Notes: generated by a model not told the origin, from the sequence alone. DNA of 64,000 nt from an uncultured Chloroflexia bacterium (GCA_963828165.1 CAWHDR010000001.1:832001-896000), one strand, 5' to 3'. Positions 9,327 to 63,018 are shown, counted from the first letter of the stretch. A program made the numbers and translations.

Positions 9327-12300
9327 TCAGACGACGGGCTGGCTCGGGTCCGCTGTCGCTCGTGACACGCTCAACGAGGCGACCGCTGCCGGACCGAGCG
9401 GCACGGCCGGCCGATCGGGTTCGATCGTCGCCGCGACGACCGGTGCGACCGGCTCGACCAACCAGAACGCCGAGGTCGGGGCGTCCAGCCCCAGGATCTG
9501 CCGTCCCAGGGCCGAGCCGGCTGAGGCGTGGTCCTCGAGCAACGCGCGCAGCTCGACCAGCCGCTCGGGGCCGTCGGGACGATCCGCGACGACGCCCGAG
9601 AGTCGGACGGCCGCCACGCTGTCCGCGTGCAGCGCCGCCACGTGGCGGCCACTCGGGTCGTACAGGTACGCCCGCCCGCCGGTCATCCCGGCCCCGAAGT
9701 TCGCCCCGACCGGGCCGAGCACCACGACCGTGCCGCCGGTCATGTACTCGCAGCCGTGCGGGCCGATCCCTTCGACGACCGCTTCGGCGCCGCTGTTGCG
9801 CACCGCGAACCGCATCCCGGCACGTCCGACGAGATGCAATCGCCCGGCGGTGGCGCCGTACAGGACGGTGTTACCGGCGATCGCCTCACCGGCCGCCGCC
9901 ACCGGCAGGTCGGGCTCAGGCGCGATCGTGATCCGACCGCCGGACAGACCCTTGCCCACATAGTCGTTGGCCTGGCCGACGAGCCGGAGCTCGATGCCCG
10001 GACCCGAGAAGGCGCCGAACGACTGCCCCGCGGCCCCGCGCAGCTCCAGGCGGACCGGTCCGCGTAGTTCCCCGCGCTCGAGCGCGCCGGTGAGCCCGGC
10101 GCCGAAGGAGCGGTCGGCCGTCGTCAGTCGTAGTCCGCCGACCGTGACCGGGCCCTGGTCTCGGAACGCCGCCGCGATGCGCGTCTCGAGTGGTGATGCG
10201 GGTGCGTGGCGCGCGAGCCGCGTCGGGAGGCCCGGATCGGCCCGCCGCGCCGCATCCGCGCCCCACGACGAGGCGCCGGTCACCGGGGCGAGCTCGGCCC
10301 GGGCAGCCGGCACCGGTCGGAGGAGCCGCCGGCTTTCGCCGACGATCTCGCCGACGGATCGGGCGCCGACGGCCGCCAGCTCCCGTCGGAGGTCCTCGGC
10401 CACGGCGAGGAAGTACCGCTCGACCATCTCGGGGGTGCCGGCGAATTTCGCGCGGAGGTCCTCGCGCTGCGTCGCGATGCCGGTCGGGCACGTGTCGAGG
10501 TGGCACTGGCGGGCCATGTCGCACCCGACCGCCACGAGCGCCGCGGTCCCGAAGGCGAACTCCTCGGCGCCGAGCAGGGCCGCCACGAGCAGGTCACGAC
10601 CCGTCTGCAGGCCGCCGTCGGTTCGCAGCGCGACTCGGTCGCGCAGGTCGTTGCGCAGCAGGACCTGGTGGACCTCCGCGAGACCCAGCTCCCACGGGGC
10701 GCCGACGTGCTTGATCGAGCTGAGCGGCGACGCCCCGGTCCCGCCTGCATGCCCCGACAGGTGGATGTACGTCGCGCCGGCCTTGGCCACGCCCGCAGCG
10801 ACCGTGCCGACCCCCCGGTTGGCAACCAGCTTGACCCCGACACGCGCCGTCGGGTTGATCGCTCGCAGGTCGGCGATGAGCTGAGCGAGGTCCTCGATCG
10901 AGTAGATGTCGTGATGGGGCGGCGGACTGATGTAGCTCTGGCCGGCCTGGCCGCGCCGAAGGGCCGCGATGTAGGCCGTCGCCTTCCGCCCCGGAAGCTG
11001 GCCGCCCTCGCCGGGCTTGGACCCTTGCGAGATCTTGATCTCGAGCTGGTCGGCCCGGGCCAGGTACGTCGCCGTCACGCCGAATCGGGCCGAGGCGACC
11101 TGCTTGATACGCGCGTCGTGGCGCCGGCCATCCGGTCCCGGCAGGTACCAGGCGGGATCCTCGCCGCCTTCGCCGGTGTTCGCGGCCCCGCCAGCGCGCT
11201 GGATCCCGATCGTCAGCGCCTGGTGCGCCTCCGGGCTCAGTGCGCCCACGCTCATCGCCGACACGACGAAGCGACGGGCGATCCCGCGCGCGTCCTCGAC
11301 CTGATCGAGCGCCAGCGGGACGGACGAGCGGCGCACGCGGAGCTCGTCGCGGGGGACTGCCGGGGCATCCGCGGCGCGACCCAGGGCATTCCGGTAGCGC
11401 GTGAGCGCGGCATCCACCGACGCGGCGGCGGCCTCGCCGTCGATCGACCCGGACAGCACCTGGATCTCCTTGGCGATCCCGGGTGAGAAGAGATGCGCCT
11501 CGCCGTCGGCCCGGAAGCGCGCCCAGCCCGGGTCCGGCAGGCGCGGCTCGCGGCCGGCGGAGGTCGGCGGCAGGGCCACGGCCGCCGCCCGACGACGCAG
11601 GCCGCGTTCGCCGAGGTCGGCCAGCGTCGTCCGGCCGGGCCACGCCGCCGCGTTGGGGAAACAGCGCGCGATGACATCGGGTGCCAGGTCGACGGTGTCG
11701 ATGAGCGTCCCGCCGATGTAGCTCGCGACCGCGCTGATGCCCATCCGCGCGAGGGTCTTGCGCAGGCCCGCCTCGAAGGCGGCGACGAGGTTCCCGATCG
11801 CCGCGGCGGGAGTGACGGTCTCAGCGCCGCGCGTCCCCGCCAGCTCCGCAGCCAGCTCGATGGCGAGTCGCGGGTGAGCGGCCGTGGCACCGACCGCGAG
11901 GGCCATCGCCATCGAATGCACGTCGAGGATATCCGCGGCATCCACGACGATGTCCGTTCGCCCGCGCAGGCCGGCGTCGGTGAGGGCGGTGTGGATGGCG
12001 CCCGCGGCCAGGATCGACGGGACGGGCAAGCGATCGACCGTCAGCGCGGCATCGCTGACGACCAGGACTTCCACGCCCGACTCCGCGGCGCGCACCGCCG
12101 CGGTGGCGAGTGTCTCGAGCGTGCCGGCCAGGCGCGCCGCGCCAGCCGAGGCGGGCCAGGTCGCATCGAGCGTGCGAACGCGCATCCCGCGAGCCTCGAG
12201 GGCCACGGACAGACCCGGAAGGTCGGCGACGATCGGCCGCTCCAGGCGGAGCGTCCGTGGCCCGCGCGGCGGGCCGCCGAGCAGCGCCGGGCGGCGACCC

Positions 12301-28262: not shown

Positions 28263-28714
28263 CCAACCCGGGGCCCGTCGAGACGCGGGCACAGCGCCGG
28301 ACCGTGGTCGACGCCGACGGCCGCGCGAAGGCTTACCGGCCACTGGCGGTCGCTGAACGAACTGCAGCCGTCATCGCCGGCATGCGGGCCTACGACGCCG
28401 GCGACTTCTTCGAGGCCCACGAGCTGATGGAGCCCGCCTGGATGGGCACCGACGATCCGGCCGAACGCGAGCTCATCCAGGGCCTGATCAAGCTGGCCGC
28501 TGCCGACGTCCACGGGGTGCGCGGCAATCCCCGTGGGGTGGCACGGAATCTCGAGGGTGCCCGCGATCGACTCCGGCGCGTGCCGGACGGCGACGCGATC
28601 GCCGGACTCCGGTTCGACCTCCGGGGGGTGCTCGACTCGATCGATCGGCGCCTCGTCGAGCTGGCCGCGAACCACGCCACCGACCCGATCCCCGTCACCT
28701 GGAGCAGCCGATGA
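28259..28714 (+). CDS. DUF309-family protein
   Basis: GDFFEAHELMEPAW and QGLIKLAAA; GTGA/ATGA overlaps on both sides. Confidence 0.82.
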   Translation: MTNPGPVETRAQRRTVVDADGRAKAYRPLAVAERTAAVIAGMRAYDAGDFFEAHELMEPAWMGTDDPAERELIQGLIKLAAADVHGVRGNPRGVARNLEGARDRLRRVPDGDAIAGLRFDLRGVLDSIDRRLVELAANHATDPIPVTWSSR

Positions 28715-29079
28715 ACCCCGTTCCCGCGATCCCGACCGTCGACGTGGCGGAGGCCGAGCGTCGGCTGCGTGAGGACCCGGACGCCCCGATCCTGCTCGAC
28801 GTCCGTGAGGCCAACGAGTTCGAGGAGGTCCGAGCCCCGGGGGCGGTGCTCATGCCCATGTCGGCCTTCGCGGCCCGGGCCGGGGAGCTGCCGGCGGACC
28901 GACCGCTCATGGTCGTCTGCCATCTCGGCGGGCGGTCCGCTGCGGCGGCCGGGTTCCTGATCCGCTCGGGGCGCGCGAACGTCGTCAACGTCGGCGGCGG
29001 CATGGACGCCTGGGAGCGTGCCGGCCTGCCGGTTCGCCATGGCGCGCCCGCACCGGGTGAGGGCGACCTCCCCGGCTGA
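28711..29079 (+). CDS. Rhodanese-like domain protein
   Basis: LLDVRE, VVCHLGGRS and GGMDAW. Confidence 0.9.
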   Translation: MNPVPAIPTVDVAEAERRLREDPDAPILLDVREANEFEEVRAPGAVLMPMSAFAARAGELPADRPLMVVCHLGGRSAAAAGFLIRSGRANVVNVGGGMDAWERAGLPVRHGAPAPGEGDLPG

Positions 29080-29088
29080 CCCGTCCGG

Positions 29089-30537
29089 TCAGGAGCGGCG
29101 GAGCACCCGCCGGACGACGCCCCGCGCCTGGTCTTTGTGGGCGAACGCCCAGCCAAGGATCAGCAGCACCACGAAGCCGACCGTGCCGGCCCCGGCCGCG
29201 TTCAGGTAGCCGAGTTGCTGGCCGATCTCACCGTCGATCTTGAGGCCCGGGACCGTGGCGCCCACGAGACCCAGCTGGAAGAACGGGCTCTGCGGCGCGG
29301 CGTTGGCCCGGACACTCGTCGCGGCCGGACCCTCGGTCCGCTCGCCGCCGATGATGATCGCGTTGGGGCCCGTGACGATGACGGTCCCGCCCGAGAGGCC
29401 GTAGGGCAGGTCGCTCACCTCCAGCCGCTTCCACTCCGGGAGATCGCCAGCATTCGTCGGGATGGCCCAGTAGGTCTCGCGCTGCGGGCCCTCGGCACTC
29501 CCGCCACCCACGAGGTACAGCGCGCCGTTGGCCGACCAGCCGGTCGCGTCGTCGCGCGGGCCGGGTACGTTCGCGGCAGGGTTCACCGCCCAGACCACGA
29601 CCTTGCCCTCGTCGGGGTTGTCCGGGAAGCCCTCGGCCGCCTCCAGTCCGAGGTCGCCGCGCTGCACCGTCGCCACCGGGCCATTCGCGTCATGACCGCC
29701 GTACAACCACACGTGGTCGCCGATGATCGCGGCGGTCGCGTCCGCCTGCGGAGCCAGGAGCGGGGCCTCGGGGACCCATTCCTGCAGGACGCCCTGGGCG
29801 TTGAACCTGCTCTTCCAGGTCGTCGCGACCGGCCCATCGGGTCCCTCGCCGCCGATGAGCAGCACCCCGTCGGGCGCGGCGACGCCGGCCGCTCCGGCGC
29901 GCCCCTCGGGCAGGGTCAGTTCCTCGGGCGCGGTCTCCCAATCGGGGAGCTCCCCGGTCTGTGGATCCGGTGTCAGCGTGTAGACCGTCGTGGTCGGCGC
30001 CCCGTCGGCGTCGAGGCCGCCCAGCACGTACACGGTGCCGGACACCTGCACGACGCTCGCGTCGGAGCGCGGCTCTGGCAGCGGCGGGCCCTCGGTCCAC
30101 CTGTCGAAGTTGCCGATCCCGGAAAGCTGCGAGACGAAGACCGTCGACTGCGCCGCCGTCCCGTCCGTGCCGCCGATGTACAGGATCTTGGTTCCCAGCT
30201 GCGTCGCCGAACCGTCCGTGCGCGGAGCGGGCAGCGTCACCTCGGTCGGCAATTCGTGCCACGGCGTGATCGCGCCGACCGGGGCGGGGCATGGCAGGCT
30301 CTCGTTGGTCGGCGGACAGAGATTGATCGGCGACCACGCGACGACGCCCAGGTCCACCGTCCGGTTGACCGTGAGGTAGTAGGCGCGGTCGGGGATGTAG
30401 CCGAGCAACAGGATGATGATGATCAGCCAGATGAACGCCTTGACCCCGGCCCACGCCCAGCCGTCCGCGTCGAGCAGGCCGAACATGGCCCGCTTGCGCG
30501 GCACGATCATCCCGGCTCCGAGCGCCCGTTGGGCCAT
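29089..30537 (-). CDS. Membrane-anchored Kelch-repeat beta-propeller protein
   Basis: About 6 repeats with Y(I/V)xGG, W and LPxPR; TM segments at both termini; GGAGG RBS. Confidence 0.8.
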   Translation of the reverse strand: MAQRALGAGMIVPRKRAMFGLLDADGWAWAGVKAFIWLIIIILLLGYIPDRAYYLTVNRTVDLGVVAWSPINLCPPTNESLPCPAPVGAITPWHELPTEVTLPAPRTDGSATQLGTKILYIGGTDGTAAQSTVFVSQLSGIGNFDRWTEGPPLPEPRSDASVVQVSGTVYVLGGLDADGAPTTTVYTLTPDPQTGELPDWETAPEELTLPEGRAGAAGVAAPDGVLLIGGEGPDGPVATTWKSRFNAQGVLQEWVPEAPLLAPQADATAAIIGDHVWLYGGHDANGPVATVQRGDLGLEAAEGFPDNPDEGKVVVWAVNPAANVPGPRDDATGWSANGALYLVGGGSAEGPQRETYWAIPTNAGDLPEWKRLEVSDLPYGLSGGTVIVTGPNAIIIGGERTEGPAATSVRANAAPQSPFFQLGLVGATVPGLKIDGEIGQQLGYLNAAGAGTVGFVVLLILGWAFAHKDQARGVVRRVLRRS

Positions 30538-30585
30538 CGTCCTCCATCCTCACACCGGTGATCGGCCGAGCCGGTCACCGGTCGA

Positions 30586-31677
30586 TCATTGCGCGGTCAG
30601 GGTTCCTGTCATGTTGCTGTGCACCGAGCAGACGAACGGGTACGCCCCGGCCGCCAGCGCTGGTACCGAGTAGTCGCGTTTCTCTGCACCCGGGAACACG
30701 TCGGTCTTGAACACGACGGCCCCGGCGGCATCCTTGATCTGGATGTCGTGCGGGATGCCGGCGTCCTGGTTGTCGAACGACAGCGTGAACGGCGCGTCGG
30801 CCGGGGCGGTCACCTCGGTCGGGTCGAACGCGATGGACGCGGCCGTGATCGTCACGACCTCGGCGCTCGGGTCGGTCGATGCGGACGGAGCCGGCGCCCC
30901 CGACGCTCCGGGCGAAGCACTGCCACCCGAGGCGAACTCCTCTTTCCAACAGTCGGGATACGGCGTCGCGGCCGGTGCCGGCTTGTAGTTCGGATCGCGC
31001 CAGCCTTTGAACGTCAGGACTTCGCCGGTCTGCGGGTCGACCTTGGGATCGAGCAGATGCTCGTCGCGGACGGTGTAGGTCGTGTCGTTGGTCGCGACCA
31101 GGAACGCGATGAGCTCCTCGATCTGGCGGTAGTTGAGCGGCCCCGGCGGGTTGCCCTGGTCCGACCAGGCCGGCATGAGCGACTTCGGATCGCCGCAGAC
31201 GTAGCGGCCACCGACGGTCAGCACATTCTTGATGTAGTTCTCGTTGAGGTGGGCGAAGAGCTTGTCCTGGCGGTTGAGGACCGGACCGATCCCGCCTTCG
31301 CCCTGCTCCCCGTGGCAACGGGCACAGTTCGCCTCGTAGACGAGATAGCCGCGCTCCACCGCGGTCACCTGTTGGGCGGTGATCTCGGCCTCCAGTCGCG
31401 GCTCGGTCAACCCGAGCGGTGCCCCCAGCTCGTAGAACCAGTAGAGCGCGACAAAGAGGATCACGACGACCGTGGCGAGGAAGCCGACCCAGCGGGCGTT
31501 CGAAGACTGGCGGACGACCTGGGCGGCCCGCTCGGGCGACAGCTCGACAGCCCGGATCGACGGTGGTGATGTGAATCGCTCGACCGGGGCGACCTCGGCC
31601 GGCGGGCGCGTCGCGGGCAGCCGTTGTTCCGGCCCGGGCTCGGGTCGCGTGGGCTCGCTGCCGGGCGTGTCGGTCAT
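30586..31677 (-). CDS. Membrane-anchored cytochrome c fused to a C-terminal cupredoxin
   Basis: TM helix, CARCH, distal MPAW, Ala/Ser/Pro linker and PHDI...FVCSVHSNM. Confidence 0.9.
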   Translation of the reverse strand: MTDTPGSEPTRPEPGPEQRLPATRPPAEVAPVERFTSPPSIRAVELSPERAAQVVRQSSNARWVGFLATVVVILFVALYWFYELGAPLGLTEPRLEAEITAQQVTAVERGYLVYEANCARCHGEQGEGGIGPVLNRQDKLFAHLNENYIKNVLTVGGRYVCGDPKSLMPAWSDQGNPPGPLNYRQIEELIAFLVATNDTTYTVRDEHLLDPKVDPQTGEVLTFKGWRDPNYKPAPAATPYPDCWKEEFASGGSASPGASGAPAPSASTDPSAEVVTITAASIAFDPTEVTAPADAPFTLSFDNQDAGIPHDIQIKDAAGAVVFKTDVFPGAEKRDYSVPALAAGAYPFVCSVHSNMTGTLTAQ

Positions 31678-31713
31678 CGGTCTCCTCGGCCGTTGGTGTC
31701 GAACGTCACAGCG

Positions 31714-32388
31714 TCAGATGCAGCCGGTCGGGGTGCGCGGCGGGATGATACCGGGCTGGCCCAGGGCCACGGGCAGCGGGCCCAGCGTGATCTTGCCGGT
31801 ATCGATCGTGAGCGCACCCGCGCCATCAACGGAGATCGAGAAGCGATCCATGCTCCGCGGCGCCGGGCCGAACTGCGCGCCGTCGGCCTTGATGCCGAGA
31901 CGGTCGTAGCGCGAGCCGTGGCAGGGACACTCCAGCCAGAAGTTCTTCACGCACGGGTTCGGCTTGCAGCCCAGGTGCGGGCATCGCTGGTACAGCGCCC
32001 GGACGTTGAGGGACGTGCCCTCGCCGGTCGTGTCCTCGCCGGCGAAGAACCGCTGTTGGGCCGGGTCGACGAGGATCACGAACGCGCGAGCGAACGCGAA
32101 GTACGCCGGGAAGCCCTCCTCGATCGGCAGCGTCGAGTTGGCCGTCTTGACCTCTTCGAGGGTCCCGATCGGCAGCTTGCCGCCGAAACCGCTGGCGAGG
32201 TTCGGCCAGATGAACCCGAGCGTGCCCGCGCTGATCTCGAGCAGCCAGAGGGCGACGCCCGCTCCCAGCGAGCGGCGGATGAGCTGGCGGCGGGACAGGC
32301 CCTGGACCTGCTGGTGGCGCAGCGACTTGAGCGCCTCCGAGGTCAGGGCGGCGGGCTTGTCGACGGCTTCGACGTGGTAGTTGCTCAT
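31714..32388 (-). CDS. Rieske [2Fe-2S] subunit of a quinol:cytochrome c reductase
   Basis: Tat motif SRRQLI plus TM helix; CPHLGC and CPCHGSRY boxes. Confidence 0.93.
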   Translation of the reverse strand: MSNYHVEAVDKPAALTSEALKSLRHQQVQGLSRRQLIRRSLGAGVALWLLEISAGTLGFIWPNLASGFGGKLPIGTLEEVKTANSTLPIEEGFPAYFAFARAFVILVDPAQQRFFAGEDTTGEGTSLNVRALYQRCPHLGCKPNPCVKNFWLECPCHGSRYDRLGIKADGAQFGPAPRSMDRFSISVDGAGALTIDTGKITLGPLPVALGQPGIIPPRTPTGCI

Positions 32389-32408
32389 GCGCGCTCAGCG
32401 ATCCTCGG

Positions 32409-33011
32409 TCACAGGGAGAAGTACATGCCGGGGGCGGTCACGTACGGGATGACGAAGGTGTAGCCCGGCCCTCGGAAGAAGATCCCGACGAACGTCAGGA
32501 CCAGGCCCAGGATGCAGAAGAGCGTGAACAGGATCACGGCCGTCTTCCGCTGCGACGGGCGGGTCACCAGGATGTTGCCGCGATCGATGTACGGGATGAA
32601 CCCGGCACCAACGAGCACGAAGGTGGGCACCAGCACCCCGGCGACCGTTGGATGGAAGTAGGCCAGCAGTTCCTGGAGACCCAGGAAATACCACGGAGCC
32701 TTCGCGACGGCCGGCGTGACATTGCCGTTGGCCAGCTCCTCGAGCGGGGCGTTGATGAACAGGCCCATCAGCAGCAGGAAGATGCTCATGACGCCGGCGG
32801 CGAGGAACTCGATCGACAGCAGATGCGGCCAGGTCATGACCGTGTCGTCCGGTTCCTTCTGGACGCGGACGACGGCGTCCTGCTTGACCAGTGCCAGCAA
32901 CCGATACGGCCGCGCCGACATCGGCACGCGCTGCTTGTCGATCTCCGTCCGCCGGGTGGGGTCGACCGGAAGGACGACGCGCTTGTCGGGCGGGGACTTC
33001 ACATCAGACAT
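32409..33011 (-). CDS. Cytochrome b C-terminal subunit (subunit IV / PetD-like)
   Basis: WPHLL, KAPWYFLGLQELL (PEWY-equivalent) and PYID; three TM helices. Confidence 0.88.
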   Translation of the reverse strand: MSDVKSPPDKRVVLPVDPTRRTEIDKQRVPMSARPYRLLALVKQDAVVRVQKEPDDTVMTWPHLLSIEFLAAGVMSIFLLLMGLFINAPLEELANGNVTPAVAKAPWYFLGLQELLAYFHPTVAGVLVPTFVLVGAGFIPYIDRGNILVTRPSQRKTAVILFTLFCILGLVLTFVGIFFRGPGYTFVIPYVTAPGMYFSL

Positions 33012-33022
33012 GACACGAAACC

Positions 33023-33144
33023 CTCGGGGCCGATAGGGCCGTCAGATGCAAGGCGGAGCTGAGCACCGGAGCGAGCGCACTCGAGGTGCGTGAGCGAGGA
33101 GCGCAGGCGACAACGACGCAGATGGCGGTCATAGCGGCCCCGAG
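33023..33144. repeat. ~120-bp imperfect palindromic element
   Basis: Arms CTCGGGGCCGatagggCCGtCAgaTGC and GCAgaTGgCGGtcatagCGGCCCCGAG; the right arm overlaps the 3' end of cytochrome b6. Confidence 0.6.
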
Positions 33145-33857
33145 ATCCCTCCGTCCTTTCTGATACGCCAGAAATGGACGGCCAGGAAGATGGCTGCAAC
33201 GAGTGGCAAGACCATGATGTGGAGCACGTAGAAGCGGAGGAGCGTGTTCTGGCCGACCTCCACGCCACCGAGCAGGATGCGCGACACCGGCGTGTTGAAC
33301 AGTGGCGCGTAGCCGCCCATGTTCGTGCCGATCGTGATGGCCCAGTAAGCGATCTGGTCCCACGGCAGCAGGTAGCCGGTGAAGCTCAACATGATGGTCA
33401 GGAAGAGCAGCACCACCCCGACCACCCAGTTGAACTCGCGCGGTGGCTTGTAGGCGCCGTGATAGAAGACCCGCATCATGTGCAGGAACACGAAGAAGAC
33501 CATCAGGTGGGCGCCCCACCGGTGGATGTTGCGGGTCAACAGGCCGAACGTGACCTGGCTCTGGATGTCGAGGATGTTCGTGTACGCGAGCGTCGCGCTC
33601 GGCACGTAGAAGAACATCAGGTACACGCCGGTGATGGTCAGCACCAGGAACAGGAAGAACGACAGTCCGCCCAGGCAGAACGTGTAGGCGAACTTGACCG
33701 CGTGCTGCCGAACGCGCACCGGGTGGATGTGCAGGAACACGTTGTTCATGACCGCGTACGCGCGCGACCGCTCGTCCCGCGGGTACGGCTGCCGGAACAG
33801 CGAGCGCCAGGCCCCGCTGCGGCGGATGGTGTGGTCCATCCGCTCGAGGAAACTCAC
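33129..33857 (-). CDS. Cytochrome b N-terminal subunit (cytochrome b6 / PetB-like)
   Basis: FCLGG, HRW...LH, FTGYLLPWDQ, helix-D His pair separated by 14 residues and C-terminal GISGPL. Confidence 0.95.
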   Translation of the reverse strand: MSFLERMDHTIRRSGAWRSLFRQPYPRDERSRAYAVMNNVFLHIHPVRVRQHAVKFAYTFCLGGLSFFLFLVLTITGVYLMFFYVPSATLAYTNILDIQSQVTFGLLTRNIHRWGAHLMVFFVFLHMMRVFYHGAYKPPREFNWVVGVVLLFLTIMLSFTGYLLPWDQIAYWAITIGTNMGGYAPLFNTPVSRILLGGVEVGQNTLLRFYVLHIMVLPLVAAIFLAVHFWRIRKDGGISGPL

Positions 33858-35689
33858 CGGGCTCCTCCTGCGACGCCGGGCGTGCCGGCGAGTTGCGCGT
33901 CACGGTAGGACTCCTTGTAGAGCCGACCGTCTGTCGAGATCTCCTGCAGTTCGAACCGCTCCATCGTAATGGCGTCGAACGGGCAACGCTTGACACACAG
34001 GGCGCAGCGGATGCAGCGCTCCTCGTCCAGGATCATCGCGCCGCCATTCTCCCAGCCGTATGCCTCCTCGAGCTCGGGCAGGAGACCCTCCGACTTGAGC
34101 GTGTTGATGTCCACCATGTGGATGACGCCCTCGGGGCAGACGTCGGCACAGGCGCCGCACAGCACGCAGCGGAACGGGTCGAACCAGATGTTGTAGTTGC
34201 ACATCAGGCAGCGCGTCGATTCGGCGACGGCGCCGTTCGCGTCGTAGCCAAGCTCGACCGGGGTGTTGAAGTTGACGACCGGGTCGGTCGACGGCATGCG
34301 CACGTCGAGCGAGACCATCGGGATGTGCTGGCGCGGGAGCACGTCGTAGAACTCGGGCATGTCGTGGCGCCAGGAGCTCGTGACCTTGACGTTGGCCGCG
34401 ACCGACACGTCGGTCCGTCCGGCGAGATAGCGATCGATGGCGTAGGCCGCCTTCTTGCCATGGCCGGCCGCCTCGATGAGCGTCGTCGGTCCGGTCACGA
34501 AGTCGCCGCAGGCGAACACCCCCTTGACGTTCGACGCGTAGGTCGCGGGGTCTACCTTGACCCGGCCGCGATTGATCTCGAAGCGCGCCTCGACCGGCAG
34601 GAAGGTCAGGTCGGCGGCCTGCGACACCGCCGGGATGACGGTCTGGGCCGGGACGATGAATTCGGATCCCTCGATCGGCACCGGCGAGCGGCGGCCCGAC
34701 GCATCCGGCTCGCCGAGGCGGTTGCGGATGAACTTGACGGCGCTGACCTTGCCGTCCTCGCCGAGGATCTCGATGGGGCTCGCGAGGAACTCCATCCGGA
34801 CGCCCTCGCGCTCGGTCTCGCCCAGCTCCTCCTCGTCGACCACGAGCTCGGAGCGGGTCCGGCGATAGGCGATCGTGACGTTCTCCGCACCATGACGAAG
34901 GCTCGTGCGCGAGCAGTCCATGGCCGTATACCCGCCGCCGATCACGACGACGTCATTGCCGACCTCGAGCGGCTGCCCCAGGTTCGCCTTCTTCATGAAG
35001 TCGACGCCGTAGTCGACGCCCTCGAGCTCCGCGCCCGGGATGTCGAGCGCGACCGCGTCCATGGCGCCGGCCGTGATCGCGATGGCGTCGTACTCGGCCT
35101 GGAGCTGCTCGAACGTGATGTCCTTGCCGATCGTCGTGTCGTACACGAACGTCACGCCGAGGCGTTCGACGAGTCGGACGTCCATCTCGATCGCCTCGCG
35201 CGGCAGGCGGAAGGCCGGCACGCCGATGAGCATCGTCCCGCCGCCGTAGGGCAGGCTGTCGAAGACCGTGCACTGGTAGCCCTTCATCGCGAGCTCGCGC
35301 GCGACTGCGATCCCGGCCGGACCGGCGCCGACGATGGCGACGCGTTCGGCGCGGGGTGCGATCTGGGGCATGACGTCGGGGATGCCGGATGCCTCGTGCC
35401 ATTCCACGAGGAAGCGCTTCATCGCGCGGATGGCCAGCGGACGGTCGATGTCGCCGCGCCGGCAGGCTCGCTCGCACGGAGCCGAGCAGACATAGGAGCA
35501 CATCGCCGCGACCGGGTTCGGCTCGCGCGACAGGATGTAGCCCTCCTCGAACCGCCCTTCGGCAGCGAGGTTCAGGTAGCCGCGGCAGTTGGTCCCGACC
35601 GGACACGCTTCCTGGCACTCGATGTTGCATTGCAACCAGGAGGCGTCGACAGGCTGGACGAGGAATTCCTGGGCGGGGTCGATGGCCAA
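33854..35689 (-). CDS. GltD/NfnL-like FAD, NAD(P)H-dependent oxidoreductase with a C-terminal 2x[4Fe-4S] ferredoxin domain
   Basis: CQEACP, CSYVCSAPCERAC, GAGPAG, GGGYTAMD, YRR, RCLMC, CVLCGACADVCP and CIRCALCVKRCP; probable TTG start at 35689. Confidence 0.9.
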   Translation of the reverse strand: MAIDPAQEFLVQPVDASWLQCNIECQEACPVGTNCRGYLNLAAEGRFEEGYILSREPNPVAAMCSYVCSAPCERACRRGDIDRPLAIRAMKRFLVEWHEASGIPDVMPQIAPRAERVAIVGAGPAGIAVARELAMKGYQCTVFDSLPYGGGTMLIGVPAFRLPREAIEMDVRLVERLGVTFVYDTTIGKDITFEQLQAEYDAIAITAGAMDAVALDIPGAELEGVDYGVDFMKKANLGQPLEVGNDVVVIGGGYTAMDCSRTSLRHGAENVTIAYRRTRSELVVDEEELGETEREGVRMEFLASPIEILGEDGKVSAVKFIRNRLGEPDASGRRSPVPIEGSEFIVPAQTVIPAVSQAADLTFLPVEARFEINRGRVKVDPATYASNVKGVFACGDFVTGPTTLIEAAGHGKKAAYAIDRYLAGRTDVSVAANVKVTSSWRHDMPEFYDVLPRQHIPMVSLDVRMPSTDPVVNFNTPVELGYDANGAVAESTRCLMCNYNIWFDPFRCVLCGACADVCPEGVIHMVDINTLKSEGLLPELEEAYGWENGGAMILDEERCIRCALCVKRCPFDAITMERFELQEISTDGRLYKESYRDAQLAGTPGVAGGAR

Positions 35690-35940
35690 GCGGGGACGTG
35701 CCTTTCCCTGGTTTGGTCGGAATGAAGGCGTCAGCGGCGGATCGGCCGTTCGCCGACCTCGCCAATCTACCATCCGCCTCGTGCGGGCTGCAAAGCACCC
35801 GGGTTTCCGGACCGACCCTGCGGCGTCGGATCGGCAGGTTCGGGTACGGTTGACGCTGGCTGCCCTCGCAGCTACGCTGCCCTGCGGAAAGCCGCGTGCG
35901 CTCGAGCACTCGAGAGCGACCGGAGGGAGATGCGGGGACC

Positions 35941-37620
35941 GTGACCGCAAGCGAGTTCGTGTTCCTGGCGCTTGGACTGGTCCTGGGCGTTGCCGCCGGC
36001 GCGGCGCTGGTCGAGATCCTGCGCGCCCGACCCCACGCTTCGCGTGAAGTCCGGGTCACGGTCGCCCCGGACTCGGTTCCGAGACGTCGATCCTCCACCC
36101 TCGCCGACGACGCATTCGCCGGGATCCAGCCCTCCGAACCGGCTCGCGGCGGCCCCGCGGACCGGCGCGGCGATGCCGTCAGCGTGGGCCCTGGGCGCAC
36201 GGAACGTCGAACACCTGTTCGCTCAGACGTGGCGGCCGCCTCAGCCGCGACCGACGGTGTCGGCGAGGGCCGAGTCGCGCCGATGCCAGCACCACGTCCC
36301 CTGCCGATCTCCGGTGGAGCCGACCCGACCCTGACTGCCATCCGCGCGACGGCGATGAGCGCGGCGGCCGCCCAGGGGCGGCAGACCACCACGGCGCTTC
36401 TTGACGCGCCGACCGGCAGCGCCGACGACGCGGCCTCCTCCGCGCCGTCGGCGCCGTCGGCGCCGTCCGTCCCCGCGCCACCGGACGCCAGCCCGAGCGC
36501 AAACGGTCCATGTGCCGAGCCGCGCCGGCTCGCGGACGAACGGTGTGAGCTCGCAATCCGCGCGCGTCAGCAGGCCGGTGTCGCCGACGAGATCCACCGC
36601 TCAGCGCAACGCGCTTACGACCAGCATGAGGCCGCGGCCGAGGCGGCCGCGGCGGCCGCGGACCCGCGCGCGGTGCGGCGGGCGAAGGACGATGCCCAAG
36701 CGCGGTTCCGGAATGGACGAGCAGGCGCGATGACCAGCGAATCCGTGGAGGCGGCCGCACGGGCGTGGCTGCTGGAGATCAACGCGATCAACGGGGACGC
36801 CCGCGAGGCAACGGCGACCCTGAACCGCGAGCGCGAGGCGGCGGCCGCCATCGCCCTGAACCTGGAGCGGCTCGCCGTCGAGGCCGATGCGGCCCGGATC
36901 GCCGCCGAAACGGCCGAATCCGTCTGTCTCACGGCGCGTGAAACGCTGGCCGCGTGCGAGGAGGCCGAGGCCGCCGGCGTGAAGGGCCATCTGCCGGCCG
37001 TCCCATCGCAGGGGCCCTCAGACGGCGGGTCGGTCGACGACGAACCGCTTGCGGCGGCACTCCATGGAGGGAGCGACCCCCGCATCTTCCGGCTGCTGCG
37101 CGGAGACCGAACCTCGTTGACCGAGGTCGTGACGGCGTTGGGCGGCGAGAGCCCCGACGAGCGCCGTCACTGGCAGGCCGCCATCGTGGACCTCATCGAT
37201 GCGATCCTCGCTGACAGCATCGCCGCGGGATCGCTGGAGTTCCCGATCGACCACCCGTTCTGGGGCACGTTCACGCTCGAGCAGGACCGCGAGATCGCCG
37301 CGGCGCTGTCCTCGCTCGGCTTCAAGTTCGACGGGTTCGGCGGATGGGTCGATGACCGGGTCCCGTCGCAACGGGACCTGTCGCTGTCGCTGGGCTACGC
37401 GGGCCTGGACCCGATGCGGATCCGCCAGTGGCCGACGGAAGTCGAGATGACCGAGCTCGTCAAGGACGTTCGGGTCGCGGCTGCCGAGCACCTGGTCGGG
37501 TCGGCAGCCGACCTGACGCTCGGTGAGCTCGTGACCATGCTCGGCCGGCGGGCCGACGGTCTCGCCGAGGTCTGGAACCACTGGGGCCGGATCCGGCCGC
37601 TGCTCCTCGACGAGTCCTAG
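35941..37620 (+). CDS. Hypothetical N-terminally membrane-anchored, Ala-rich coiled-coil protein
   Basis: GGGAG RBS, GTG 35941, N-terminal TM helix, long helical middle and globular C-terminus. Confidence 0.65.
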   Translation: MTASEFVFLALGLVLGVAAGAALVEILRARPHASREVRVTVAPDSVPRRRSSTLADDAFAGIQPSEPARGGPADRRGDAVSVGPGRTERRTPVRSDVAAASAATDGVGEGRVAPMPAPRPLPISGGADPTLTAIRATAMSAAAAQGRQTTTALLDAPTGSADDAASSAPSAPSAPSVPAPPDASPSANGPCAEPRRLADERCELAIRARQQAGVADEIHRSAQRAYDQHEAAAEAAAAAADPRAVRRAKDDAQARFRNGRAGAMTSESVEAAARAWLLEINAINGDAREATATLNREREAAAAIALNLERLAVEADAARIAAETAESVCLTARETLAACEEAEAAGVKGHLPAVPSQGPSDGGSVDDEPLAAALHGGSDPRIFRLLRGDRTSLTEVVTALGGESPDERRHWQAAIVDLIDAILADSIAAGSLEFPIDHPFWGTFTLEQDREIAAALSSLGFKFDGFGGWVDDRVPSQRDLSLSLGYAGLDPMRIRQWPTEVEMTELVKDVRVAAAEHLVGSAADLTLGELVTMLGRRADGLAEVWNHWGRIRPLLLDES

Positions 37621-42812: not shown

Positions 42813-42873
42813 ATCGGCCGTCCTGAGGCCGTGTGGCTGCTCCGTGGCCTGGTGGGACCTTCGGGCTATTGGC

Positions 42874-42920
42874 AAGAACTGTGAGGTTGGTAGCCTCCGT
42901 TCGTGGACTCCACAGTTCTT
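42874..42920. promoter_or_regulatory. Inverted repeat upstream of the HTH-GAF-GGDEF gene
   Basis: AAGAACTGTG-N27-CACAGTTCTT, AT-rich relative to background, ending 11 nt before the ATG. Confidence 0.6.
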
Positions 42921-42931
42921 ACAGGTCATCG

Positions 42932-45886
42932 ATGATGGCGCAGCTGCCTCCCAGACCCACAGACGCGACGCTGTCGGTCACCAAAGCCGCGCGGCTTCTG
43001 GGCGTGCACCCGAACACGGTCCGGACATGGAGCGACGCGGGTCGCCTGCGCTACTACCGGATCAACGCCCGCGGCGATCGACGCTATCGCCTTGGGGACC
43101 TCCAGCGCTTCCTCGCGGCCGCGGAAAGCGTCGCGACGGACGGCCCCGGTGGCAGCGCTGCCGCCCGCCGGCATCACGATCAAGGGCTCTCGGGACATGC
43201 CGGTGGTGCCCGCGCTTCGATCGCGACCTTCGGCGGCCCGACCGATGCCGTGGACCCCCTCGGCGCGGAGCGCCACCGTCGCCACCTCGCCCTGCTCGAC
43301 CACATCGCCCGCCTGACCGTCGTCGGCAGCGACCTCGATGACGACCTGATGCGGATCGCCCAGGAGATCCGCGCCGCGACCGAGCTGGCGCTCGTCGCGC
43401 TCTGGGAGCTGCGCGGCGACCGCCTGACACCCCGAGCCGCGGCCGTACCAGCGGGCGCGGTCACGCCTCGCCTGCTGGATCTGCCGCGGGGCTTCGGTGT
43501 CCTCGGACGGGCCCTCGATTCGGTCCCGACTTCGCGAGCCAGGACGGACGACGAGCCATCACCAGGTGCCGTGGCCGTGCTCGGTTCGGCCCTCGATCGA
43601 GTGACGTCGACGGTCCTTCCCGGGGCCCACAGCGAGCTTGCCGTGGCCATTCCCGGCCCGAACGGCACCTGGGGCGTCCTGTTGATGGTCGCGGATGGCA
43701 CGGATGGCGGAGACGGGGTCGGCACCACCGATCCGGACCTGGCAGCAGCCCTCGCCGATGCGATCGGGACCGTCGTCAGGGTCGCCCGTCGCGAGGAGGA
43801 GGTCGCCCACCTTCTGCATCGGGCCGAGGCCTTGCGTCGCGTCGCCGGCGACATCGGCAGCCGGCTCGATCTCGACCGGATCCTCACCGGCCTCGTCGAT
43901 CACGCCATGGTCCTCTTCGAGGCCGACCGCGCGGCCGTCTTCATGCGCCGCCCGGACGGCACCGACGTCGCCGAGGTGAGCCGCAACCTCTCGACTGGCT
44001 ACCTCAACTTGATGCGGGCGGCCCAGAGCCGATCGCTACCGGCAGCAGCCATCGCCGCACGCCGACCCCTGTTCTCGGTCAATTATCGCGACGACCCCCG
44101 CGGTGCAGATGCGCGCGCAGCCGTGGTGCAGGAGGGCTACGACACCCTTTGCACGGCGCCCCTCATGGACGGCACGGACCTGCTCGGATTGCTGAACGTC
44201 TACCACGACACGCCGCACGCCTGGACGCCCGACGAGCTCGAGACCATCGCCTCGCTCGCGACGCAGGCCAGCGTCGCGATCCGGACCGCCCAGAACTTCC
44301 AGCAGATGGCTACCTGGACCGCGCAGCTGCAGTCGATCCAGCAGCTCGGAGCGCGGCTCAACCACCTCTCGAACGTCAATCACATCGGCGTGGCCATCGC
44401 GACGGAGCTACGCCAGCTGATCGACTTCCACAACGTCCGCGTCTACCGGGTCCAGGGCACCGACCTCGTGCCCGTCGCGATGCAGGGCCAGGTCGGCGAG
44501 TACGTCGACGAGACGCCCGACCAGCTCCGCGTCGCGATCGGCGAGGGCATCACCGGATGGGTCGCCGAGAAGCGGGTCGCCCAGTACCTCCCGAACGCCG
44601 CAGCGGATCCGCGTGCGAACACGATCCCCGGGACCGAGGACGACCTCGACGAATCGATGCTGCTCGCACCGATGCTCTTCGACGACCAAGTGCTCGGGGT
44701 GCTGGTCCTCTCCAAGCTCGGGCTGCACCAGTTCAGCGACGACGACTTGCGTCTGCTCGTCATCTACGCGAGCTTCGCCGCCCAGGCGATGGCCAATGCC
44801 GACACCACGCAACGATTGCGCGAACAGTCGACGACGCTCGAGCGCCAGCTCCGCAGCCAGCGCGAGCTGCTGCAGATCACGGAAGCGATCCTCACGACGC
44901 TCGATGGCCGAGCCGTACTCGAGGGCATCACCGATCGCCTCGGCGGCCTGATCGCCTACGACAACGTCGCGATCGAAGTCGTGGACCCCTCGACCGGGCG
45001 GCTCACGCCGCTGACCGCTCGCGGCATCCACGCGGCCGCCTACCTCGAGCCATGGGAGCCCGGCGAGACGGGCGTCGCCACCTGGGTCGTGGAGCACAAC
45101 GAGCCCGTCTACGTCGAGGACGAGACGACCGATACACGGGTCAACCACTTCCGCGGCGAGGACTCCGCGGCCGGCAGCCTCATCGTGGTCCCGCTGCGCG
45201 GGCGGATGGGCGCGATCGGGGTCATGACGATCGAGCGGCTGGGGGCGGGCAACACCTTCGAGCCCGAGGAGTTCGACCTCGTCAAGCTGTTCGCCGGGCA
45301 GGTGTCGATCGCGCTCCAGAACGCCGAGGTGTTCCGAGCCGTCGAGATCCGGGCGCAGACCGACGACCTGACGGGTCTTCTCAACCACGGGACGTTCATG
45401 GACTACCTGAATGGGCTCGTCCGAGAGGGCTCGCCGTTCGGGCTGATCATGCTGGACCTCGACGACTTCCGGGAGATCAACAACACCGGCGGCCATCAAG
45501 CGGGTGACCAGGCGCTGCGCCGGATCGCCGCGTCGCTCGTCCGTGCCGGCCGTGACACGGACCGGGTCTTCCGCTACGGCGGCGACGAGTTCGCCTTCAT
45601 CCTTCCGCTCTCCGACCCGCTGGGGGCGCAGCAGGTCGCCGAGCGCGCGCGTGCTGCCGTGAAAGGACTCGGCGGCCCTGTCAGCGCGTCCATCGGTGTC
45701 GCAAGCTTCCCGGCAGACGGCGCGACCACGGCGGAGGTGCTGCTCGCGGCCGACCGCGCGTGCTTCGTGGCCAAGCGCAACGGTCGCGATCGGGTCGCGA
45801 CGGCGGCCGAGGGCCTCGCGCTCGCGGCGGAGTTCCGGCTCCAGGATCCGACGCCGGTCGACTCCGAGACCGCAGCGGCCAGCTGA
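42932..45886 (+). CDS. Diguanylate cyclase with an N-terminal excisionase/BldC-like HTH and about 4 GAF domains
   Basis: LSVTKAARLLGVHPNTVRTWSDAG...GDRRY, repeated GAF domains, DDLTGLLN, RDTD I-site and RYGGDEF. Confidence 0.9.
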   Translation: MMAQLPPRPTDATLSVTKAARLLGVHPNTVRTWSDAGRLRYYRINARGDRRYRLGDLQRFLAAAESVATDGPGGSAAARRHHDQGLSGHAGGARASIATFGGPTDAVDPLGAERHRRHLALLDHIARLTVVGSDLDDDLMRIAQEIRAATELALVALWELRGDRLTPRAAAVPAGAVTPRLLDLPRGFGVLGRALDSVPTSRARTDDEPSPGAVAVLGSALDRVTSTVLPGAHSELAVAIPGPNGTWGVLLMVADGTDGGDGVGTTDPDLAAALADAIGTVVRVARREEEVAHLLHRAEALRRVAGDIGSRLDLDRILTGLVDHAMVLFEADRAAVFMRRPDGTDVAEVSRNLSTGYLNLMRAAQSRSLPAAAIAARRPLFSVNYRDDPRGADARAAVVQEGYDTLCTAPLMDGTDLLGLLNVYHDTPHAWTPDELETIASLATQASVAIRTAQNFQQMATWTAQLQSIQQLGARLNHLSNVNHIGVAIATELRQLIDFHNVRVYRVQGTDLVPVAMQGQVGEYVDETPDQLRVAIGEGITGWVAEKRVAQYLPNAAADPRANTIPGTEDDLDESMLLAPMLFDDQVLGVLVLSKLGLHQFSDDDLRLLVIYASFAAQAMANADTTQRLREQSTTLERQLRSQRELLQITEAILTTLDGRAVLEGITDRLGGLIAYDNVAIEVVDPSTGRLTPLTARGIHAAAYLEPWEPGETGVATWVVEHNEPVYVEDETTDTRVNHFRGEDSAAGSLIVVPLRGRMGAIGVMTIERLGAGNTFEPEEFDLVKLFAGQVSIALQNAEVFRAVEIRAQTDDLTGLLNHGTFMDYLNGLVREGSPFGLIMLDLDDFREINNTGGHQAGDQALRRIAASLVRAGRDTDRVFRYGGDEFAFILPLSDPLGAQQVAERARAAVKGLGGPVSASIGVASFPADGATTAEVLLAADRACFVAKRNGRDRVATAAEGLALAAEFRLQDPTPVDSETAAAS

Positions 45887-62240: not shown

Positions 62241-63018
62241 GTGACCCGCCAAGCCGTCACGTACGCGTCCTACCTCAAGGTGCCGGAGCTCCTCGCCCTC
62301 CAGGTCGAGCGATCCGCCGGCGCGGACGGCCCAGAGCACGACGAGCTGTTGTTCATCGTCATCCACCAGGTCTACGAGCTGTGGTTCAAGCAGGTCCGCC
62401 ACGAGCTTCTGGCCGTCCAGCGGGCGCTGGAGTCGGGTGACACCGACACCGCCCTCCACCTGCTCAACCGGGTCCTCAAGATCCTCAAGACGCTCGTCGC
62501 CCAGGTCGACGTGCTCGAGACGATGACCCCGCTCCAGTTCCTGTCGTTCCGCGACCGGCTCGAATCCGCGTCGGGGTTCCAGTCCGGTGGATTCCGGCAA
62601 GTCGAGGCGCTGCTCGGCCTGCGCGACCCGGCGTCGGCCCGCGCCCAGCCGGAGGCATCCGAGGCGCGCCGGGCGATCGAGGAGGACCAGGCCGGGCCGT
62701 CGGTCTGGGACTCGTTCCTGGCCTACCTGGGCCAGCGTGGGCATGCGGTGCCCGCCGATGCCACGACGCCGGACGAGCGCGTCCAGGAGATCGTGGTTGC
62801 CGTGTATCGCGGTGACCCAGACGCCGCCCTGGTCGCGGAGCGGCTCGTCGACCTCGACGAGGGTGTCCAGGAGTGGCGCTACCGGCACGTGAAGATGGTC
62901 GAGCGGACGATCGGCACGAAGGCGGGCACGGGCGGGTCGAGCGGGGTGGAGTACCTGCGCATGGACGCTCTTCCGGCCGGCGTTCCCGGACCTGTGGGAG
63001 ATCCGCTCGAGGCTCTGA
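62241..63018 (+). CDS. kynA: Tryptophan 2,3-dioxygenase (one extra base near the 3' end)
   Basis: HDELLFIVIHQVYELWFK, ASGFQS and WRYRH...GTGGSSG; the true C-terminus TLFRPAFPDLWEIRSRL* lies in another frame after ~62964. Confidence 0.9.

Follow-up and report, generated by a model that had tools for sequence, protein, structure and literature searches.

The DNA analyzed here is a stretch of 64,000 nucleotides (G000:C1:832001–896000, hereafter the window) from an uncultured Chloroflexia bacterium of soil, placed here in the Chloroflexota class Limnocylindria, whose genome of 3.3 Mb is 87.7% complete. On the minus strand of the window, between positions 29089 and 35689, six co-oriented open reading frames (ORFs) make up one operon, which encodes in this order an iron–sulfur (Fe-S) flavoprotein of the NADP(H) (nicotinamide adenine dinucleotide phosphate) type, cytochrome b6, subunit IV, a Rieske protein, a cytochrome c–cupredoxin fusion and a Kelch protein (Table 1). 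Sequence comparisons support the conclusion that the flavoprotein gene is the conserved, translationally coupled head of this b6-type Rieske/cytochrome b operon, and the arrangement is beyond chance. A previous inspection of the same DNA (hereafter the sequence-only reading) had proposed these six genes in this order; the ORF map placed all six at the positions given there, with Pfam domains in agreement, and the ORF coordinates bore out the GTGA overlap (33854–33857) of flavoprotein stop and b6 start, which is also kept in relatives. Close homologues of the flavoprotein are labelled 'Candidatus Limnocylindrales bacterium', phylum Chloroflexota.

Conservation of the flavoprotein–cytochrome b6 link in Limnocylindria

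The gene neighbourhoods of relatives were surveyed, a check that the sequence-only reading had called for, and adjacency of the two genes proved to be maintained across three families (f1, f2 and f3) within the class. In 26 of 29 loci from relatives, b6 comes after the flavoprotein gene, and the remaining three are cut off by the end of a contig. Among 301 genomes drawn from across the phylum, the link was present in all nine further f1 loci and in all 15 loci of f3, a family that represents a second order, with identities of only 52% for the flavoprotein and 66–75% for b6. A b6 profile search of the genome collection listed 80 matches, all from Limnocylindrales and with at least 91% identity. 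In these named Limnocylindrales loci from metagenome-assembled genomes (MAGs; n = 80), the flavoprotein gene was found directly upstream of b6 in 72 of the 75 with enough DNA for evaluation, the three exceptions being lone second copies of b6, and all four downstream genes were present in 60 of 63.

Genomes of family f2, of about 1.1 Mb, keep all six genes in order, with a flavoprotein identity of 83% and, at the same position, a Kelch protein of 41–43% identity. Operons of f3 consist of five genes, the cytochrome c being devoid of the cupredoxin part and the Kelch gene being absent. A 4-base overlap between flavoprotein and b6 genes, either ATGA or GTGA, was observed in five relatives belonging to two further families (loci L084, L085, L086, L089 and L087) and is kept across f1, f2 and f3; its retention while flavoprotein identity falls to 52% was counted in favour of the docked complex proposed below. 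Presence and absence of the two genes also go together: among 16 genomes of family f1, both are found in ten and neither in six (genera g5 and g6), and no genome has one alone.

Structure and identity of the flavoprotein

The flavoprotein gene starts with a TTG codon (35689), preceded by GGGAAAGG, and the product length of 611 amino acids (aa) is shared by most close homologues. An N-terminal Cys-rich domain with eight Cys is followed by a GltD/NfnA-like core for flavin adenine dinucleotide (FAD) and NAD(P), and then by a C-terminal ferredoxin domain of the 2x[4Fe-4S] type, which has one more invariant pair of Cys, CxxC (invariant Cys were taken from alignments A1 and A3), and by a tail of 41 aa. 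This C-terminal tail, 41–43 aa long, is conserved and specific to the Limnocylindria class.

The best sequence matches in PDB were NfnA 9n5u (E 3e-108), the NfnA of C. saccharolyticus NfnABC, 9bov (4.9e-108), and StnC 8oh5. After NfnA/StnC, the next solved relatives were NfnB/NfnL, GltD and DPD, and the C-terminal domain resembled FwdF. An AlphaFold2 model (pLDDT 87.7, pTM 0.87) showed no membrane segment and had 9bov, 8oh5 and 9n5u as top Foldseek matches. From these structural neighbours and from a YRRTR motif, which we take to be typical of NADPH binders, we infer that the flavoprotein uses NADP rather than NAD. Its Fe-S wire would hold about four clusters.

Components of the cytochrome b6 complex

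The b6 protein conforms to a four-helix cytochrome b6. Its two His pairs for hemes bL and bH, H112/H126 and H213/H228, are invariant (alignment A2), and their spacing agrees with that of cytochrome b6. The top PDB matches are the b6 chains of b6f complexes (E 1.7e-52), and the protein scored 294.9 bits with the NCBIfam model ExtP, whose cut-off is 290. The sequence C61-L-G-G64 is invariant in six of six class members (alignment A2) and conforms to CxGG, the motif that defines a site for covalently bound heme ci (PMC5600118). In subunit IV, which is a separate protein, the quinol-site motif P[E/D]W[F/Y] is altered, as all six class members have A105-P-W-Y108 where PEWY is usual (alignment A4); its three hydrophobic stretches were judged by eye from the sequence.

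The Rieske protein carries a twin-arginine (Tat) signal, SRRQLIRR, and the boxes CPHLGC and CPCHGSRY, in which Ser and Tyr are both present; a Rieske centre of the Ser/Tyr type is probably a high-potential one. The first two of its 67 PDB matches were 9rk4 (1.2e-10) and 9rk3 (4.4e-10), identified in PMC12954380 as the Kuenenia Rieske proteins Kuste4569 and Kustd1480, and the third match followed at 1.1e-5. The cytochrome c–cupredoxin fusion combines a type-1 copper cupredoxin domain with a single CxxCH heme site (CARCH); no close solved relative of it was found in PDB, where the best match had an E of 0.004. Proteins resembling the Kelch protein in the ESM Atlas are mostly from Chloroflexota.

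Respiratory context in the genome

The sole COX1 gene of the genome (G000:C1:818668–820008) lies 13 kb before the window and a PntB transhydrogenase gene (G000:C1:898221–899597) lies 2 kb after it, so that respiratory and NADP(H) genes are numerous around the b6 operon. The genome also encodes complex I. About 4 kb from nuoD, a gene on the plus strand (G000:C1:1200498–1203782; L005:460–3744) encodes a protein of 1094 aa that combines a NuoG-type 2Fe-2S part, a GltD-like FAD/NAD(P) part and a 4Fe-4S dicluster. This is the only other GltD-like module of the genome and is 38% identical to the flavoprotein. Judged from these domains, complex I, and not complex III alone, seems to receive NADP(H)-type modules in this lineage.

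A search with the b6 query revealed no other b-type complex III cytochrome in the genome, except for a broken lone copy of b6. This second b6 (G000:C1:2523087–2523813, plus strand) is 91–94% identical to the operon b6, is split over two frames here, and has no adjoining gene for subunit IV, Rieske or flavoprotein (loci L002/L003, L127, L141 and L157). Three related MAGs have it intact, in the vicinity of the same DUF72-like gene, and the full operon is also present in two of them. The difference between the lone and operon proteins lies chiefly in a single loop, TNFGSYFPIVATPVNRL versus TNMGGYAPLFNTPVSRI. The lone copy may represent an alternative b6 isoform.

Proposed function

In the anammox bacterium Kuenenia, two Rieske/cytochrome b complexes with NAD(P) oxidoreductases have been described, and quinol bifurcation has been proposed to serve NAD(P)H production (PMC12954380). 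Co-migration of the oxidoreductase subunits with their complexes has been reported (de Almeida 2016, as cited in PMC5600118 and PMC12954380). Our leading account of the Limnocylindria operon, which we hold tentatively, is that it encodes a quinol:cytochrome c/cupredoxin oxidoreductase, i.e. a b6-type complex III, that would carry the flavoprotein in docked form and work by an anammox-like mechanism. Docking of the flavoprotein on the complex as a cytoplasmic subunit is probable, given that their translational coupling is conserved, that the two genes are lost together, that the tail is peculiar to the class and that Kuenenia offers a precedent. The account also draws on the solved neighbours of the flavoprotein and the Rieske matches, both of which point to the anammox complexes, on the single COX1 gene, and on the failure of the b6 query to reveal another b-type complex III cytochrome besides the broken copy. 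Expression is hinted at by contigs of relatives from four RNA libraries (three studies), 88–99% alike, which cover all six genes. Electron flow toward NADP+ reduction, by analogy to the published anammox scheme, is possible and is put forward with more reserve.

According to this scheme, the complex would feed the single heme-copper oxidase. Quinol would be oxidised at the outer site, from which the first electron would pass through the Ser/Tyr-type Rieske centre and cytochrome c/copper to oxygen. The second electron would cross the membrane by way of the b hemes and heme ci and, at least sometimes, would exit through the ferredoxin-like domain to FAD, with NADP+ being reduced.

Distribution outside the class and evidence opposing the proposal

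The linkage of flavoprotein and b6 documented in this analysis is confined to the Limnocylindria class. Sister classes of Chloroflexota have operons for b6, subunit IV, Rieske and cytochrome c, the last with the cupredoxin part in some cases, in which b6 is 57–66% identical. Downstream of b6, they have the same genes in the same order as Limnocylindria, and the motifs CxGG, FLHxHPV and CxCHGSxY are common to both. Unlike in Limnocylindria, no flavoprotein gene stands at the head of the sister-class operons, and the 40–44% identical homologue, where present, is encoded elsewhere; in genome G199, homologue and b6 are about 146 kb apart.

Several observations weigh against the proposed function. 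No flavoprotein gene was found within about 5 kb of the sister-class b6 operons in any of 16 loci (L282, L284–L298), b6 was not nearby in any of 20 loci of full-length sister-class homologues, and several Chloroflexota families with this b6 have no flavoprotein homologue at E ≤ 1e-80. Because sister classes and families run the operon without a flavoprotein gene, the b6 complex works without it. In a metagenome scan of the next flavoprotein subfamily, the first sequence of which came from a cluster labelled Nitrospinota, none of 80 loci (54 of them with at least 1000 bases downstream) contained b6, subunit IV or Rieske; in the 14 loci sampled, neighbours were genes for 2-oxoacid:ferredoxin oxidoreductase or formate–tetrahydrofolate (THF) ligase, or were unrelated. 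The Ser/Tyr pair was present in all 20 Chloroflexota Rieske proteins read, and the FLHxHPV motif is general in the b6 proteins of the phylum, in both cases with flavoprotein-less operons included, so that neither is a specific signature of the flavoprotein add-on. No MqnA/MqnD (PF02621) or MenD above cut-off was found in the genome, at its 87.7% completeness, and the presence of PntB and complex I means that NADPH need not come from the b6 complex. Finally, the RNA-library contigs (Logan contigs of relatives), short and devoid of strand or end information, do not prove that the operon is transcribed, and the flavoprotein/b6 junction is crossed by none of the 32 pieces listed. Contig depth was near zero at 35701–35900, perhaps merely as a result of unconserved intergenic DNA.

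As marks specific to the add-on, the b6 motif around His43 and the Rieske Ser/Tyr pair were therefore dropped, since flavoprotein-less relatives have them too. In plasmid searches, b-type operons were all without flavoprotein, and flavoprotein homologues of 30.6–37.8% identity were found in six records. Given the varied neighbours outside the class, the flavoprotein family at large looks like an NADP(H)/Fe-S module that can be plugged into differing partners.

A quick tree of the flavoproteins separated the class clade (value of 99) from a group of unlinked Chloroflexota sequences. The approximately unbiased (AU) test, chosen only after this tree had been seen, did not reject a single clade (p-AU 0.57), the constrained tree being better by 9.3 log-likelihood units. 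Combined, the two results show neither independent recruitment nor vertical descent of the linked flavoprotein.

Unlinked flavoprotein homologues (L061–L076, L079) end in a conserved tail, ...NDRWNVSKIPV.... In six of six genomes with a homologue so tailed, the b6 protein (loci L284–L288 and L290) has a C-terminal extension, GPPPPSRRELE..., which is missing in seven of seven families without a flavoprotein homologue. As the six genomes are probably close kin, the match of tail and extension gives no more than a hint that an unlinked homologue, too, may dock on b6.

Alternative explanations

Electrons might run in the opposite direction, from NADPH to FAD, through the Fe-S wire to heme ci/bH and to a quinone at the inner site, making the complex an NADPH:quinone (overall NADPH:cytochrome c) oxidoreductase or a two-way valve governed by redox poise. 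By established redox potentials, transfer from NADPH to quinone is downhill for any known quinone. The GltD-like module of the complex I region, with its fused NuoG-like and ferredoxin domains, suggests that NADPH is fed into respiration, the presence of PntB makes NADPH supply independent of the b6 complex, and the binding of FNR to b6f, named in the sequence-only reading and also cited in PMC5600118, offers a precedent. However, complex I already provides an entry for reducing equivalents, and the Ser/Tyr type of Rieske protein fits the anammox scheme of NADP+ reduction, unspecific as this signature is. We regard the reverse direction as only slightly less likely than flow toward NADP+.

That the flavoprotein does not dock at all, and is a soluble ferredoxin/Fe-S:NADP+ oxidoreductase co-expressed with complex III for reasons of regulation, would agree with its lack of a membrane segment in the model, with the many Chloroflexota whose b6 complex has no flavoprotein, and with the company kept by its relatives, which are found beside genes for 2-oxoacid:ferredoxin oxidoreductase alpha/beta and Pyr_redox_2 proteins (L203, L206, L238 and L194), beside formate–THF ligase (L187, L190 and L201), or alone. 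Such independence is hard to reconcile with a 4-base overlap that outlasted divergence of the flavoprotein to 52% identity, with strict joint presence or absence of the two genes in family f1, with a conserved tail of 41–43 aa particular to the class, and with the reported co-migration of the Kuenenia equivalents (de Almeida 2016, as cited in PMC5600118 and PMC12954380), and we consider it decidedly unlikely. A role as the GltD small subunit of an NADPH-glutamate synthase, serving the gltB gene located 20 kb away in the same window, might be suggested by the absence of a GltD gene adjoining gltB and of any stand-alone GltD in the genome at E ≤ 1e-20. Identity as GltD was rejected, since the protein scored 204 against a cut-off of 447.7 for TIGR01317 and 265.5 against 482.95 for TIGR01318 (NCBIfam); moreover, it has an extra C-terminal ferredoxin domain, its gene is coupled with b6 and not with gltB, and four of four genus-g5 genomes keep gltB while missing the flavoprotein. 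A true GltD partnering GltB, which the sequence-only reading had named as the finding that would undo it, is thus not what the data describe, and this role is so improbable as to be close to refuted. The docked complex III subunit remains the preferred interpretation.

Organization of the locus and neighboring genes

Coordinates of the operon and its elements are collected in Table 1. The G+C content of the window is about 70%. Upstream, the operon is flanked by a divergent gene of unknown family (35896–37620, plus strand). No sigma-70-like site was found in 35690–35895, and a promoter/terminator scan of both operon ends gave nothing.

Table 1. Genes and other elements of the flavoprotein–cytochrome b6 operon, in window coordinates
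Feature	Position	Strand	Characteristics and basis
NADP(H)-type Fe-S flavoprotein	33854..35689	-	611 aa; Pfam Fer4_20, Pyr_redox_2, 4Fe-4S dicluster; NCBIfam
GTGA stop/start overlap	33854..33857	-	Flavoprotein stop TGA and b6 start GTG; ORF coordinates
Cytochrome b6	33129..33857	-	242 aa; PF00033 E 4.6e-47; CLGG
Subunit IV	32409..33011	-	200 aa; PF00032 E 1.6e-07; three hydrophobic stretches
Rieske 2Fe-2S protein	31714..32388	-	PF00355; SRRQLIRR, CPHLGC, CPCHGSRY
Cytochrome c–cupredoxin fusion	30586..31677	-	PF13442/PF00034 and PF13473; CARCH; C..H..M; membrane-anchored, monoheme
Kelch beta-propeller protein	29089..30537	-	Kelch families; hydrophobic N- and C-terminal stretches
Intergenic region, presumed promoter	35690..35895		ORF map

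A small gene with a rhodanese domain (28711–29079, plus strand) is convergent with the end of the operon. The Glu_synthase domain of gltB was located at 10362–11402 (minus strand), inside a frame of 1584 aa with no GltD gene adjoining; its product is perhaps a ferredoxin-type glutamate synthase (GOGAT). An ordinary signalling protein of 1017 aa, with HTH, three GAF and GGDEF domains, is encoded at 42833–45886 (plus strand). The sequence-only reading had set the operon in a region with kynA; this gene is indeed present in the window (62244–62963), but at about 27 kb from the operon.

Implications

Among the open puzzles of anammox bioenergetics are the Rieske/cytochrome b complexes that include an NAD(P) oxidoreductase. 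The version found in Limnocylindria is much simpler, with one monoheme cytochrome c–cupredoxin, a subunit IV of three hydrophobic stretches and a host that respires oxygen. The host bacteria are very abundant in soil and freshwater, and close relatives naturally devoid of the add-on provide a ready comparison set. Should the flavoprotein dock, the low-potential electron of the Q-cycle would be diverted to NADP+, or NADPH would be fed in, in ordinary aerobic respiration too.

A broader speculation, unlikely as it stands, is that in Limnocylindria both complex I and complex III of an aerobic chain are equipped with GltD/NfnA-type modules that bind NADP(H), and that the add-on of complex III originated within Chloroflexota through relocation of a formerly unlinked gene to the front of the b6 operon. 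On this view, docking on b6 would extend to the orthologues that are unlinked in other classes (tail RWNVSKIPV, with the matching C-terminal extension of b6), and quinol-driven NADPH synthesis or NADPH-driven Q-cycling would be a widespread, overlooked aerobic branch in abundant soil and freshwater bacteria and not an anammox oddity.

Comparison with known systems

The literature search revealed no paper on this operon in Limnocylindria, and the one genomic paper retrieved, PMC13212565, contains neither 'Rieske' nor 'complex III'. The sequence-only reading had presented the system as novel. This claim is too strong, as such complexes are already in print for anammox bacteria and for 'many other cases': NAD(P) oxidoreductase genes have been reported in bc operons of some planctomycetes and, in an updated tree, 'in many other cases' (PMC5600118; see also PMC12954380). 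The flavoprotein-bearing type of b6 complex is therefore known from anammox, and its reaction has never been measured. New here are the sister classes without flavoprotein, the unrelated contexts of outside relatives, and a GltD-like module encoded close to complex I genes of this genome.

The best sequence and fold matches of the flavoprotein are NfnA/StnC of the Bfu-type transhydrogenases NfnABC/StnABC, together with NfnB/NfnL of NfnAB. All share a GltD-like core for FAD and NADP(H) and two N-terminal clusters, and NfnA/StnC also share the ferredoxin-like domain behind the core. However, these are soluble, flavin-based bifurcating enzymes with NuoE/F-like partners, whereas the neighbour here is a membrane cytochrome b6; by Pfam, no NfnB/C-like gene was found among the operon genes.

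A second comparison concerns ExtOPQ of Geobacter, the Rieske/cytochrome b portion of extHIJKLMNOPQS. The b6 protein passes the ExtP cut-off narrowly, and ExtQ failed (54.3 versus 150). In Geobacter, the cluster includes multiheme cytochromes along with a porin and a rhodanese, and it lacks a flavoprotein (PMC5877670). Membership in the Ext selenite/tellurite cluster was rejected, given the ExtQ score far under the cut-off and the absence of multiheme cytochrome and porin genes from the operon. ExtM was likewise discarded as a counterpart of the flavoprotein, being a 12-heme cytochrome (PMC5877670). The likeness to the Ext cluster of a similar b6 with a rhodanese gene close by may be due to chance, and a rhodanese gene by itself is not enough for an Ext cluster.

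The closest parallel is with Kuenenia stuttgartiensis, and here the sequence-only reading had been apt in pointing to anammox: the two best PDB matches of the Rieske protein are both from Kuenenia, and the flavoprotein has the structural neighbours of Kuste4570. The Kuenenia operons Kuste4569–4574 and Kustd1480–1485 have, like that of Limnocylindria, a split b6 and subunit IV, the heme-ci motif, a Rieske protein and a GltD/NfnA-like flavoprotein. Kuste4570 and the Limnocylindria flavoprotein have the same solved neighbours, NfnABC 9bov/9bp5 and FwdF 5t5i (PMC12954380), and share the same build of an NfnA-like core and an FwdF-like cluster domain, a likeness that is one of structural neighbours and not of directly compared sequences. 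The Limnocylindria Rieske protein keeps the Ser/Tyr pair of Kuste4569; the potentials of the Kuenenia Rieske proteins are +303 and +335 mV (PMC12954380). AlphaFold3 models of the Kuenenia complexes include a new heme b with His43 of both b subunits as ligand, and the b6 protein of Limnocylindria has a His at 43, in FLHxHPV, corresponding to the His43 of Kuste4571 proposed as ligand of this extra heme b (PMC12954380). By contrast, the outer-side partner in Limnocylindria is one monoheme cytochrome c–cupredoxin, and in Kuenenia it is multiheme cytochromes or an HAO-like protein; subunit IV has 200 aa with three hydrophobic stretches, compared to five helices in the anammox models (PMC12954380); the Kelch membrane protein is an extra of the Limnocylindria operon; and the host, unlike anammox Kuenenia, is an aerobe with a heme-copper oxidase.

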